From Escherichia coli (GTDB taxonomy: Bacteria > Pseudomonadota > Gammaproteobacteria > Enterobacterales > Enterobacteriaceae): 64,000 nt of DNA. The notes under the pieces are model-generated. The model ran no database searches and was not told the origin of the DNA. It saw only the letters and a list, made by a program, of their open reading frames with translations. The DNA lies in assembly GCF_001677475.2 (NCBI RefSeq), contig NZ_CP015229.1; one strand, 5' to 3'. A program made the position numbers and the translations under genes. Below are positions 4,166 to 45,792 of this stretch, one piece after another; within the stretch, counting starts at the first letter, position 1; the number at the start of each line of letters is the position of its first letter.

Positions 4166-4273
4166 TTCCCACTCCCGAAGACCACGGTTGAATGAACGTC
4201 CTGTTCCCGGTTGCTAACAAGGCGTCCTGCCCGGTTAAAAGCCCCCCGCCGCAGCGGAGGGCAAATGGCAACC

Positions 4274-6409
4274 TTACTCGCCCTGTTCAGCAGCCGGAGC
4301 TTCCGGTGCTGCAGCAGGTTGAGACTGCTCAGTCGCTTCTTTAATGCTCAGACGGATACGGCCCTGGCGATCAACTTCCAGAACTTTCACCGGTACTTCC
4401 TGACCCATCTGCAGGTAATCGGTCACTTTCTCAACGCGTTTGTCAGCGATCTGAGAGATGTGTACCAGACCTTCTTTACCGCCGCCGATGGCAACAAATG
4501 CGCCAAAGTCAACTATACGGGTCACTTTACCATTGTAGACGCGGCCCACTTCGATTTCTGCAGTGATCTCTTCGATACGACGAATAGCATGTTTCGCTTT
4601 CTCGCCGTCGGTCGCTGCGATTTTCACAGTACCGTCATCTTCGATTTCGATGGTGGTGCCAGTTTCTTCGGTCAGAGCACGGATAACAGAACCGCCTTTA
4701 CCGATAACGTCTTTGATCTTGTCCGGGTTGATCTTGATGGTATGGATACGCGGAGCGAACTCAGAGATATCGCCGCGCGGCGCGTTGATCGCCTGTTCCA
4801 TTACGCCCAGGATATGCAGACGCGCACCTTTAGCCTGGTTCAGTGCAACCTGCATGATCTCTTTGGTGATACCTTCAATTTTGATATCCATCTGCAATGC
4901 AGAGATACCGTCGCGGGAACCCGCAACTTTGAAGTCCATATCGCCCAGGTGATCTTCGTCGCCTAAAATGTCAGACAGTACAACGTAGTTGTCGCCTTCT
5001 TTCACCAGACCCATTGCGATACCCGCAACAGCAGCTTTGATCGGCACACCTGCGTCCATCAGCGCCAGAGACGCGCCGCACACGGAAGCCATAGAAGAAG
5101 AACCGTTGGATTCGGTGATTTCAGACACTACACGTACGGTGTACGGGAATTTGTCCATATCCGGCATGACTGCCAGCACGCCGCGCTTCGCCAGACGACC
5201 GTGACCAATTTCACGACGCTTCGGAGAACCGACCATGCCGGTTTCGCCTACGGAGTACGGAGGGAAGTTGTAGTGGAACAGGAAGGTGTCAGTACGTTCG
5301 CCCATCAGTTCATCAAGAACCTGCGCGTCACGAGCAGTACCCAGCGTTGCGGTAACCAGCGCCTGCGTTTCACCACGGGTGAACAGCGCAGAACCGTGAG
5401 TACGCGGCAGCACGCCAGTACGCACATCCAGACCACGGATCATATCTTTTTCACGACCATCGATACGCGGTTCGCCTGCCAGTACGCGGCTACGAACAAC
5501 GTTTTTCTCGATCGCGTGCAGAATTTCACCCAGTTCGTTTTCGTCCAGGGTTTCGTCTTCAGCAAGCAGCGTCGCGATGGTTTCAGATTTGATGACATCA
5601 ACCTGCGCATAACGCTCTTGTTTGTCGGTGATGCGGTAAGCATCACTCAGACGAGCTTCAGCCAGTGCAGCAACGCGCGCGTTCAGCGCTTCGTTTACCG
5701 GCTCCGGCTGCCAGTCCCAACGCGGTTTACCGGCTTCTTTCACCAGTTCATTGATGTTCTGAATAACAACCTGCTGTTGTTCATGACCGAACACTACTGC
5801 GCCCAGCATCTGGTCTTCACTCAGCAGTTCAGCTTCAGATTCAACCATCAGTACAGCGGCTTCAGTACCCGCAACAACCAGATCCAGTTTGCTCTCTTTC
5901 AGCTCGTCCTGAGTCGGGTTCAGTACGTACTGGTCATTGATGTAACCTACGCGGGCAGCACCAATCGGACCATTGAACGGAATACCAGACAGAGACAGTG
6001 CTGCGGAAGCACCAATCATCGCGACGATATCCGGGTTAACTTGCGGGTTAACAGAAACCACGGTGGCGATAACCTGAACTTCGTTGACGAAGCCTTCCGG
6101 GAACAGCGGGCGAATCGGGCGGTCAATCAGACGCGCGATCAGGGTTTCGCCTTCGCTTGGGCGGCCTTCACGACGGAAGAAGCTACCCGGGATACGACCA
6201 GCAGCGTAGGTACGCTCCTGATAGTTAACGGTCAGTGGGAAGAAGTCCTGACCTGGTTTGGCTTTTTTCTGGCCAACAACGGTAACAAATACCGCGGTGT
6301 CATCCATGCTAACCATAACAGCGGCAGTAGCCTGACGAGCCATCATGCCGGTTTCCAGAGTCACGGTGTGTTGGCCGTACTGGAATTTACGAACGATCGG
6401 ATTAAGCAA
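4274..6409 (-). CDS. pnp: Polynucleotide phosphorylase PNPase (711 aa), TTG start
   Basis: Translation (M)[30 protein letters not shown]... through KH/S1 C-terminus; start is TTG (complement of 6407..6409), as known for E. coli pnp. Track ORF (740 aa) over-extends. Confidence 0.95.
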
Positions 6410-6610
6410 TGTAATATCCTTTCTCTTTCTTAGACAGTACCTTACGGCACTGGTGTTAATACCCGATCTTCTGCGCATCCTCGCGACTAATGACAACCCT
6501 AACCCAGCTCTATGTGGGTAAAGCCTCTCATTAGCCGCGCGAACCTCTGCAACGGAAGATCATTCATAGCAACAATACATTAGTTTCCAGTGAATTGCTG
6601 CCGTCAGCTT

Positions 6611-6640
6611 GAAAAAAGGGGCCACTCAGGCCCCCTTTTC
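6611..6640 (-). terminator. rpsO intrinsic terminator (hairpin also usable from the plus strand)
   Basis: ggggccactcaggcccc hairpin flanked by A-run on plus and T-run on minus, 16 nt downstream of the rpsO stop. Confidence 0.7.
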
Positions 6641-6655
6641 TGAAACTCGCAAGAA

Positions 6656-7021
<366 letters not shown>

Positions 7022-7073
7022 TTAAGCGGCAGTATTCTACTCGTAGCGACCTGTTATCGCAAGACGGTTAACA

Positions 7074-8018
7074 TTACGCCGGGTATTCAACCACCAGGCG
7101 ACGAGGCGCAACGCGGCCTTCATCGTCAATTTCGCCCATACCGATAAATTTGCCGTTCTCACCTTCCGTGACGCGAACCAGTCCTTCCAGCGGCGCACCG
7201 GATGTACGAACCGGGTTACCATTTTTGAAGTAAACAGAAGACGTTAACGGAAGATTCACCACCGGATAGTCCGAAGCTGGACTGTCCATTGGCATCAGTA
7301 ATGGATCAAGTAACTCCGCAGCCGGAATATCCTGCTGTTCAGCTTGTTCGACCAGTTCACGCAGATGTTCCAGGGTCACCATCCGTTCAACTGGATATTT
7401 ACTTACCGCCAGACGACGCAGGTAAATAACATGCGCGCCACAACCGAGTTTTTCACCCAGGTCGTCAATGATAGTGCGGATATAAGTACCTTTTGAGCAG
7501 TGAATTTCCAGCTCCAGCTCATTGCCTTCATGGCGAATAAACAGCAATTCATAAACGGTAATCGGACGCGCTTCACGCGGAACTTCAATGCCCTGACGCG
7601 CGTATTCGTACAGTTTTTTGCCCTGATATTTCAGTGCTGAATACATCGAAGGGATCTGTTCGATATCGCCACGGAAGGTATCCAGCGCCGCCGCCAGTTG
7701 CTCTGCACTAAAGGTTACCGGACGTTCTTCAACGATTTGTCCATCGGCATCGGAAGTATCGGTACGCTGTCCAAGACGCGCAATCACCCGATAGCGTTTG
7801 TCGGAGTCCAGCAGATACTGGGAAAACTTCGTCGCTTCCCCGAGGCAAATCGGCAACATGCCAGTTGCCAGCGGGTCCAGCGCGCCGGTGTGTCCGGCAC
7901 GGTTGGCGTTATATATACGTTTCACTTTTTGCAGCGCATCGTTGCTGGACATACCCTGCGGTTTATCCAGCAACAAAACGCCGTTAATGTCGCGACCGCG
8001 ACGACGAGGACGACTCAT
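7074..8018 (-). CDS. truB: tRNA pseudouridine-55 synthase TruB (314 aa)
   Basis: Translation [53 protein letters not shown]... (TruB catalytic Asp motif). Confidence 0.95.
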
Positions 8019-8468: not shown

Positions 8469-8505
8469 ATTTCAGGTGGAAGGGCTGTTCACGTTGGCCT
8501 GATAA

Positions 8506-8569
8506 GACGCGCCAGCGTCGCATCAGGCAATCCATGCCGGATGCGGCGTAAACGCCTTATCCCGCATGG
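8506..8569. repeat. REP/BIME-type palindromic units in the infB-rbfA spacer
   Basis: gcctgataagacgcgccagcgtcgcatcaggc and gccggatgcggcgtaaacgccttatcccgcatgg resemble E. coli REP consensus. Confidence 0.6.
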
Positions 8570-13263: not shown

Positions 13264-13329
13264 TAAAAAAAGGGCCTAAAGCCCAGTTATTCTGTAGTCA
13301 GATAACAAAAAACCCCGATAAATCGGGGC
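13264..13329 (-). terminator. Two tandem hairpin/U-tract terminators downstream of metY
   Basis: Minus strand: gggctttaggccc + ttttttt (13264..13283) and ccccgatttatcgggg + tttttt (13305..13329). Confidence 0.6.
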
Positions 13330-13453
13330 TTTATATAACTGAACCCTATAACCGCAACTGCGGTCTGGAGCACTTTCCAGAAGGATTTTTTCAAATCCCA
13401 CTACGAAGGCCGAAGTCTTCACAGTATATTTGAAAAAGGACTCTAAGGGAAAG

Positions 13454-13530
<77 letters not shown>

Positions 13531-17312: not shown

Positions 17313-17399
17313 TGGTACCGAGGACGGGACTTGAACCCGTAAGCCCTATTGGGCACTACCACCTCAAGGTAGCGTGTCTACCAATTCCACCACCTCGGC
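17313..17399 (-). tRNA. leuU: tRNA-Leu (GAG anticodon, 87 nt)
   Basis: Reverse complement reads GCCGAGGTGGTGGAATTGGTAGACACGCTACCTTGAGGTGGTAGTGCCCAATAGGGCTTACGGGTTCAAGTCCCGTCCTCGGTACCA; long variable arm; immediately downstream of secG. Confidence 0.95.
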
Positions 17400-24048: not shown

Positions 24049-24092
24049 GCAAAAAAATACCGACCCGGGTACAAGTCCCAGGTCAGCTACAA
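24049..24092 (-). ncRNA. graL: greA leader terminated by an intrinsic terminator (GraL-like short leader RNA)
   Basis: Minus strand GACCUGGG-ACUUGUA-CCCGGGUC hairpin followed by GGUAUUUUUUU, about 40 nt downstream of the predicted promoter and upstream of the greA start codon; 5' end is inferred. Confidence 0.45.
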
Positions 24093-24099
24093 TTCACAT

Positions 24100-24127
24100 T
24101 TTGATAGTCATTTTACCCTGAAGTTCC
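24100..24127 (-). promoter_or_regulatory. Sigma-E-type promoter (GGAACTT-N16-TCAAA) overlapping a sigma-70 -10 (TAAAAT) upstream of greA
   Basis: Minus strand reads GGAACTT cagggtaaaatgacta TCAAA; a close match to the sigma-E consensus with 16-nt spacing. Confidence 0.55.
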
Positions 24128-24203
24128 CGAAGGGTCATCGTTTACTTTATAGGGCGTTGCGCCGTAGTATGACGGCTCGATTCCAGGTTGTTAGCGCGAG
24201 ATT

Positions 24204-45671: not shown

Positions 45672-45792
45672 GTGCGGCCTGAAAAACAGTGCTGTGCCCT
45701 TGTAACTCATCATAATAATTTACGGCGCAGCCAAGATTTCCCTGGTGTTGGCGCAGTATTCGCGCACCCCGGTCTAGCCGGGGTCATTTTTT
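45672..45792 (+). ncRNA. arcZ: ArcZ (SraH/RyhA) Hfq-dependent small RNA, about 121 nt
   Basis: GTGCGGCCTGAAAAACAGTGCTGTGCCCTTGTAACTCATCATAATAATTTACGGCGCAGCCAAGATTTCCCTGGTGTTGGCGCAGTATTCGCGCACCCCGGTCTAGCCGGGGTCATTTTTT matches my recollection of ArcZ; 3' terminator hairpin plus U-run overlaps the arcB stop codon. Confidence 0.85.

Follow-up and report, generated by a model that had tools for sequence, protein, structure and literature searches.

Overlapping control elements between rpsO and pnp in an Escherichia coli chromosome: the PNPase start codon, an RNase III hairpin, a shared terminator and the antisense RNA SraG

Introduction

The spacer that separates rpsO from pnp in Escherichia coli raises the question as to how a terminator, the leader of the mRNA for a major exoribonuclease and an antisense RNA are fitted into the same few hundred base pairs, and which of the two strands the conserved structures in that DNA are kept for. 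We addressed this question for the window, a 64,000-nt stretch of E. coli chromosome in which nlpI, pnp, rpsO, truB and rbfA all lie on the minus strand and in which the rpsO stop codon and the pnp TTG are separated by 246 bp (6410..6655). An original prediction, made from the letters of the window and a list of its open reading frames, had proposed a start codon for pnp, a leader hairpin, a two-way terminator and an antisense RNA for this spacer. Here we place these elements base by base, compare them across the Enterobacterales and combine them with what has been published for K-12.

Results

The spacer is identical to that of K-12

K-12 MG1655 positions 3311139-3311459 and window positions 6380-6700 are 100% identical in a DNA alignment. 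Over pnp, the spacer and rpsO together (4274-6925) the window differs from K-12 by 30 substitutions, every one of them within pnp and downstream of 6287, and two of these alter the protein (Q194E and T626N); there are no differences in the 246-bp spacer, in rpsO or in the first 120 nt of pnp. When 461 bp around the spacer were used as the query, 5425 of 5426 complete E. coli genomes gave a match, 5385 of them at an identity of at least 99%. Judged by this comparison of sequences, the non-coding spacer is constrained at least as strongly as the coding sequence. We are almost certain that the region is the intergenic rpsO-pnp control region of E. coli, the same as in K-12. Because the spacer is identical to that of K-12, experiments on K-12 hold base for base here, and the transcript facts given below are K-12 (or K-12/N3433) data carried over to this strain by sequence identity. 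The features of the locus are collected in Table 1.

Table 1. Features of the rpsO-pnp region in window coordinates, with the basis for each placement.
Feature	Position	Strand	Basis and details
pnp CDS (PNPase, 711 aa)	4274..6409	-	ORF and translation; RefSeq CDS in K-12 and O157; PDB chains; TTG conserved in Enterobacterales
Artefactual 5' extension of the pnp ORF	6410..6478	-	In-frame ATG 6478..6476; mechanical ORF back to TTG at 6496 (4274..6496)
SraG promoter -10, TAATAT (probable)	6412..6417	+	Position derived from the mapped start; 6 nt upstream of 6424
pnp Shine-Dalgarno region, GAAAGGA	6417..6423	-	Sequence; GGA 6419..6417, 7 nt upstream of TTG; about 100 species have AAGGA at this distance
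SraG (PsrO) primary transcript, 216 nt	6424..6639	+	K-12 ncRNA b4449 via 100% identical alignment; Rfam; cRT-PCR and Northern blot in K-12
Long imperfect hairpin 'R', RNase III substrate	6465..6561	-	Fold, covariation, K-12 cleavage; apex loop 6514..6507
Putative pnp promoter P2	6564..6577	-	Start near 6564; -10-like TATTGT 6577..6572
Bidirectional intrinsic terminator (rpsO T1 on -, SraG terminator on +)	6612..6640	both	Sequence, scan and folds; core 6618..6634
rpsO CDS (ribosomal protein S15, 89 aa)	6656..6925	-	ORF and RefSeq; stop codon 6658..6656

Other RNA elements lie elsewhere in the window. An S15 leader, next to SraG, is matched by Rfam above its gathering score at 6869-6983 (-), and further matches above gathering score are naRNA4 (CssrE), a rimP leader, two tRNAs, a greA leader and ArcZ; together with the S15 leader, the seven matches other than SraG occupy 6869-6983 (-), 8496-8566 (-), 13265-13365 (-), 13457-13530 (-), 17316-17399 (-), 24052-24173 (-) and 45672-45779 (+). 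Directly past the pnp stop codon, a G/C-rich hairpin, GCCCTCCGC-TGCG-GCGGGGGGC followed by TTTT (4237-4262, -), is presumably the pnp terminator T2.

PNPase is translated from a conserved UUG

The TTG at 6409..6407 stands in the minus-strand sequence ...GAAAGGAUAUUACA-UUG-CUU-AAU-CCG..., and this codon had been put forward in the original prediction as the pnp start, with the longer ATG-initiated reading frame dismissed as an artefact. Both statements hold. RefSeq pnp begins at window position 6409 and encodes 711 aa in K-12 and in an O157:H7 strain, and in a survey of 110 usable rpsO-pnp loci the homologous start codon is TTG in 101 and GTG in two, with AAGGA 7-9 nt upstream. The remaining seven loci have other start codons and S15 scores of 323-336 (those listed are Pseudidiomarina, Idiomarina and a Gammaproteobacteria MAG), below the cutoff of 345 used for Enterobacterales; among the roughly 100 Enterobacterales species, only two depart from TTG. 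The same start is seen experimentally in K-12, where a toe-print requiring both 30S subunits and tRNAfMet lies 15 nt from the UUG and where a TTG to TGA change served as the pnp translation mutant (Fontaine et al. 2016; PMC5029454). By this published toe-print on an identical sequence, the initiation complex of the present strain, too, is taken to form at the pnp UUG.

In the E. coli PNPase structures 7OGK, 3GCM and 3H1C, as in most E. coli chains in the PDB, the first residue corresponds to the TTG codon. The chains of 3CDI and 3CDJ begin with six residues encoded by the leader, KRKDIT (window 6410-6427, -), followed by LLNPIV, the first Leu of which is the TTG; the old long-ORF annotation thus seems to have reached a crystallised construct.

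If PNPase instead began at the upstream ATG (6478..6476), it would have 734 aa and the TTG would encode an internal Leu. The frame is indeed open from that ATG in E. coli, GAGG stands ahead of it, and 3CDI and 3CDJ do carry leader-encoded residues. The ATG is, however, part of a conserved GAGGATG motif on the paired 3' arm of the RNase III hairpin described below, with zero spacing between GAGG and ATG. Of 100 distinct Enterobacterales spacers, 61 have the ATG in another frame, 20 have a stop after it and 13 lack it; only the remaining six keep the frame open, against 94 with a closed or shifted one. Together with the TTG start in current RefSeq and in most PDB chains, and with the toe-print and translation mutant at the UUG (PMC5029454), these counts leave the upstream start with practically no probability, and we regard it as effectively refuted.

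The pnp leader folds into a conserved RNase III hairpin

Upstream of the UUG start, the 176-nt leader on the minus strand has a minimum free energy of -61.2 kcal/mol (z=-3.6), and none of 200 shuffled sequences folds as well. The fold is dominated by a 97-nt hairpin running from 6561 to 6465, which accounts for -47.8 kcal/mol when folded alone (6460..6561, -), and a single-hairpin fold is recovered for all 97 distinct hairpin sequences. In an alignment of 95 hairpin sequences, 89.6% of cells are paired, compared with 34-48% for controls in which the partner columns were slid; 20 of the 37 pairs are compensatory, i.e. changed on both sides, and none of 500 shuffles reaches any of the observed measures. 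At columns 18 and 104, for example, a GC pair in 54 sequences is replaced by AU in 31 others. The core of the hairpin (UUCGCGCGGCUAAUGAGAG / UGUCAUUAGUCGCGAGGAUG) is nearly invariant, and its base and apex vary with compensation. An RNase III autoregulatory stem-loop had been anticipated in the leader, and these data locate it: the structure is stable, it covaries, and cleavage at two sites is documented for K-12. The accompanying figure of 246 bp for the leader is correct as the length of the spacer, the P2 transcript having a leader of about 155 nt.

This length comes from published mapping. The pnp RNA of Fontaine et al. 2016 (PMC5029454) comprises positions 1-234 from the start, its 3' end being set by a primer complementary to nt 62-79 of the ORF; an RNA of 234 nt that ends at ORF nt 79 has a P2 leader of 155 nt and therefore a P2 start near 6564. 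TATTG of the putative P2 -10 is conserved in the spacer alignment. A consensus promoter scan of 5950-7150 detected neither P2 nor the promoter of SraG, and its sole candidate is rpsO-proximal (7062..7034); the placement of both promoters therefore rests on the literature and on arithmetic. Measured from the P2 start, RNase III cuts the pnp leader at 39 and 77 nt, and it makes mirror-image cuts in SraG (Fontaine et al. 2016; PMC5029454), so that, with 6564 as the start, the sites RIII1 and RIII2 would fall at about 6525 and 6487 (±3 nt). Placed in this way, the cuts miss the ideal 2-nt stagger across the predicted helix by about 5 nt, and we therefore treat P2 or the cut positions as uncertain by about 3 nt.

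The leader is the one known from earlier work on RNase III and PNPase in E. coli (Portier, Regnier, Jarrige and Carzaniga; summarised in PMC5029454), from which it does not differ in sequence: a long imperfect hairpin lies upstream of the UUG and the Shine-Dalgarno sequence has a GGA motif, likewise here. As documented for the identical K-12 sequence, it is accordingly expected to be cleaved by RNase III on both arms and then to undergo PNPase-dependent decay. A search of Rfam, which had been proposed as a check for both the PNPase leader and SraG, succeeded for the latter; on the minus strand no pnp leader family scored above gathering score, and only the mirror-image SraG family covers this DNA.

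One hairpin ends rpsO and the antisense RNA

Twenty nucleotides after the rpsO stop codon lies a hairpin with the core GGGGCC-ACTCA-GGCCCC (plus strand), i.e. six G-C pairs closed by a 5-nt loop. On the plus strand, AAAAAA (6612-6617) stands before it and a C (6635) and TTTT (6636-6639) after it, so that the T-runs are unequal, with six Ts for rpsO on the minus strand and four for SraG on the plus strand. The fold is likewise asymmetric, at -21.2 kcal/mol on the minus strand and -15.7 kcal/mol on the plus strand. A hairpin between an A-run and a T-run, able to end rpsO in one direction and an antisense RNA in the other, had been predicted at 6617..6636; the element is real, with the correction that the G/C core is 6618..6634 and that the predicted span is this core plus one or two flanking bases. 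For K-12, T1 of rpsO and T of sraG are described as one bidirectional terminator, and the major SraG 3' ends lie at this terminator, with some read-through and some clones that extend further downstream (Fontaine et al. 2016; PMC5029454). As in the known rpsO T1, a G/C stem between an A-run and a T-run is shared by convergent transcripts; the element is asymmetric, with six U towards rpsO termination and four towards that of SraG. Given the reports for K-12, the 3' ends of both convergent transcripts are mapped to this terminator in an identical sequence, and the same is expected of the present strain.

A core-motif search finds the core in 98 of 100 Enterobacterales spacers; a T-rich tail in the rpsO direction accompanies all 98 cores, and at least three consecutive As are present on the other side in 74 of them. 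The latter count bears on whether the hairpin could terminate rpsO only, with the SraG 3' ends near 6639 arising by processing or by stalling of an exonuclease at the stem. The short plus-strand tract (just UUUU and then C), the weaker hairpin on that strand, the SraG clones that run further downstream and the finding that RNase III also cuts the SraG terminator in vitro (PMC5029454) would all fit such an origin. Against it stand the major SraG 3' end at the terminator (PMC5029454), the A-tracts upstream of the core in those 74 species and the terminator scan, which the plus-strand hairpin passes. The scan in fact reported the hairpin on the plus strand only, as the minus-strand stem extends through the A/T runs and absorbs the T-tail. 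We consider termination of rpsO alone very unlikely and retain the bidirectional terminator.

The distance between rpsO and the terminator varies. In 20 of the 98 loci (e.g. L045, L093 and L110; examples include Pantoea stewartii), with spacers of about 300-318 bp, the terminator lies 71-87 nt past the rpsO stop codon, against the usual 19-22 nt, and an extra segment of about 65 nt separates rpsO from the terminator. Some species (L014, L035, L036, L083 and L096, with spacers of 346-399 bp) have insertions of 100-150 bp; L096 has the 3' arm of the terminator replaced directly after GGGGCC, and L083 is without the GGGGCC core. For Yersinia pestis, Fontaine et al. 2016 (PMC5029454) note an insertion element at the same place.

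SraG covers the leader in antisense

The antisense RNA had been named as SraG (PsrO) on the plus strand of the spacer, its ends being left unplaced. Its identity is supported by Rfam, by the K-12 annotation and by two papers that give PsrO as an alias of SraG, and its ends can now be set at 6424 (5') and 6639 (3'): K-12 sraG (b4449; 3311183..3311398) aligns to 6424..6639, and all 216 nt are 100% identical, with the same position, strand and terminator as in the RNA described by Argaman 2001 and Fontaine 2016. RF00082 matches the plus strand of the spacer between pnp and rpsO, both of which are on the minus strand, at 6468..6639 with 164.3 bits (gathering score 50, E=5.4e-30) over the full model, 1-177. 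The Rfam model represents the older 174-nt form of SraG, and the match consequently begins 44 nt inside the primary transcript. The 216-nt primary RNA was mapped by cRT-PCR and Northern blot, with a start 42 nt upstream of the old 5' end, at which no clone began (Fontaine et al. 2016; PMC5029454). In agreement with that study, base 6424 is a T. The SraG fold has a z of -3.6. By identity to the mapped K-12 gene, SraG is probably made in this strain.

Six nucleotides ahead of the start, TAATAT is the probable -10 box of SraG, and it overlaps, on the opposite strand, the spacer between the pnp Shine-Dalgarno sequence and the TTG. In K-12, mutation of a -10 described as 'close to but not overlapping' the Shine-Dalgarno sequence abolishes the 216-nt RNA (Fontaine et al. 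2016; PMC5029454). A different promoter candidate, TAGACA-N17-GTTAAT just upstream of 6468, was rejected; it would serve the old 174-nt start, at which there are no primary 5' ends, the true start being 42 nt upstream. Fontaine et al. 2016 (PMC5029454) also mention a prediction of a longer antisense transcript that begins within pnp, 339 nt ahead of the SraG promoter (about 6085, +); scanning 5950-6480 for consensus promoters gave no candidate.

With respect to function, the duplex between SraG and pnp ends just short of the Shine-Dalgarno sequence, adjoining it; full-length SraG removes the 30S toe-print and the short SraG-S does not; a new RNase III site arises in the duplex; and the SraG promoter mutant has 1.3-fold more pnp mRNA and PNPase (Fontaine et al. 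2016; PMC5029454). Overproduction of SraG lowers pnp expression. The RNA is poorly expressed, and other targets have not been found for it.

The hairpin is kept for the mRNA strand

Since the SraG covariance model and the pnp leader hairpin describe the same DNA read from opposite strands, we compared the two senses. Every one of the 97 distinct sequences folds more stably as mRNA (mean -47.2 kcal/mol) than as SraG (mean -30.1 kcal/mol), and the mRNA-sense hairpin contains on average 5.2 G.U pairs, the SraG-sense one 0.65. Since G.U pairs turn into C-A mismatches when the opposite strand is read, we conclude that the hairpin is kept for the pnp mRNA. The hexamer TAATAT of the SraG -10 is found unchanged in 31 of 100 species, and 38 of 100 have a -10-like sequence, yet RF00082 matches 14 of 16 diverse loci, some of them without the -10. 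Pantoea (L045) and Dickeya (L044), for instance, score 129-132 bits with RF00082 and do not conserve the E. coli SraG -10; in loci of this kind the pnp hairpin and the rpsO terminator may by themselves account for the match. The spacer of Enterobacter (L005) is also without the SraG -10. In a Dickeya RNA-seq study, PsrO/SraG alone among 23 annotated sRNAs went undetected, which its authors attribute to growth conditions.

It is thus quite possible, though short of probable, that outside Escherichia and some other genera an RF00082 'SraG' is a reverse-complement shadow of the pnp hairpin and the rpsO terminator, with no sRNA gene. This suggestion follows from an mRNA sense that is about 17 kcal/mol more stable and eight-fold richer in G.U pairs, and from a -10 present in only about one third of Enterobacterales species; for many SraG homologues the strand data allow such a shadow and do not prove it.

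A related reading would have the plus-strand RNA as real but a by-product, with little regulation in E. coli itself and no independent gene in most Enterobacterales, the elements that match RF00082 being kept for the leader and for rpsO termination. The strand asymmetry, the uneven -10 set against widespread RF00082 matches and the missing Dickeya RNA all point this way, as do the mere 1.3-fold effect of the promoter mutant, the lack of other targets and the poor expression. The defined E. coli promoter, whose -10 mutation removes the 216-nt RNA (PMC5029454), the specific block of the 30S toe-print by full-length SraG and the lowered pnp expression upon overproduction argue the other way; moreover, the Dickeya result is put down to growth conditions by its authors, and the A/U-rich spacer between Shine-Dalgarno sequence and start codon could keep or lose a -10 for unrelated reasons. 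On balance we find the by-product reading unlikely and keep SraG as an antisense RNA acting on pnp in E. coli.

Discussion

Taken together with the K-12 literature, the elements placed here suggest the following model. Most rpsO transcripts from P1 would stop at T1 (core 6634..6618 plus six U), and the pnp leader would be carried by transcripts that read through T1 and by those from the internal P2. The leader would then fold into the 97-nt imperfect hairpin, RNase III would cut both of its arms and PNPase would remove the small 5' fragment of the cut leader. The processed pnp mRNA would be unstable and poorly translated, and could be bound by CsrA, one CsrA site overlapping the Shine-Dalgarno sequence. 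Translation of pnp would begin at the UUG, 7 nt past the GGA of that sequence. On the plus strand, a weak promoter whose -10 overlaps the spacer between Shine-Dalgarno sequence and UUG would start SraG, which would cross the whole P2 leader in antisense and end at the same G/C hairpin followed by UUUU. By pairing with the leader up to the Shine-Dalgarno sequence, SraG would block 30S binding, create an RNase III site and modestly lower PNPase.

Antisense RNAs opposite pnpA and next to rpsO are also described in Firmicutes, namely RliD of Listeria and ref41 of Enterococcus (PMC5029454); their likeness to SraG, compared by description, is one of position, and no sequence similarity is reported.

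For annotation, pnp should continue to begin at its TTG, and the longer ATG ORF should be dropped. PGAP left sraG unannotated in the one non-K-12 record examined; in the present strain it can be placed at 6424..6639. More generally, the strand-asymmetry test indicates that a covariance-model match to an antisense sRNA can rest wholly on structure selected on the opposite strand. All elements of this locus are already known for E. coli, and the window adds no new biology to them; what it contains is a textbook example of how a major exoribonuclease is controlled after transcription in several layers, by RNase III, PNPase itself, CsrA and an antisense RNA.

Methods

Identity, positions, structure and conservation come from the present analysis, and transcripts, cleavages, the toe-print and terminator use from the literature on the same sequence; the window positions of P2, RIII1/2 and the SraG -10 are derived to within a few nt. 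For the start-codon survey, one genome per species was scanned for pnp codons 8-17, giving the 110 usable rpsO-pnp loci. The MAFFT alignment of whole spacers, at 950 columns, was too gappy for structure, and the hairpin was cut out and realigned for the covariation measures.

Significance

In E. coli, the rpsO-pnp spacer thus places RNase III, PNPase, CsrA and an antisense RNA on a single mRNA leader.
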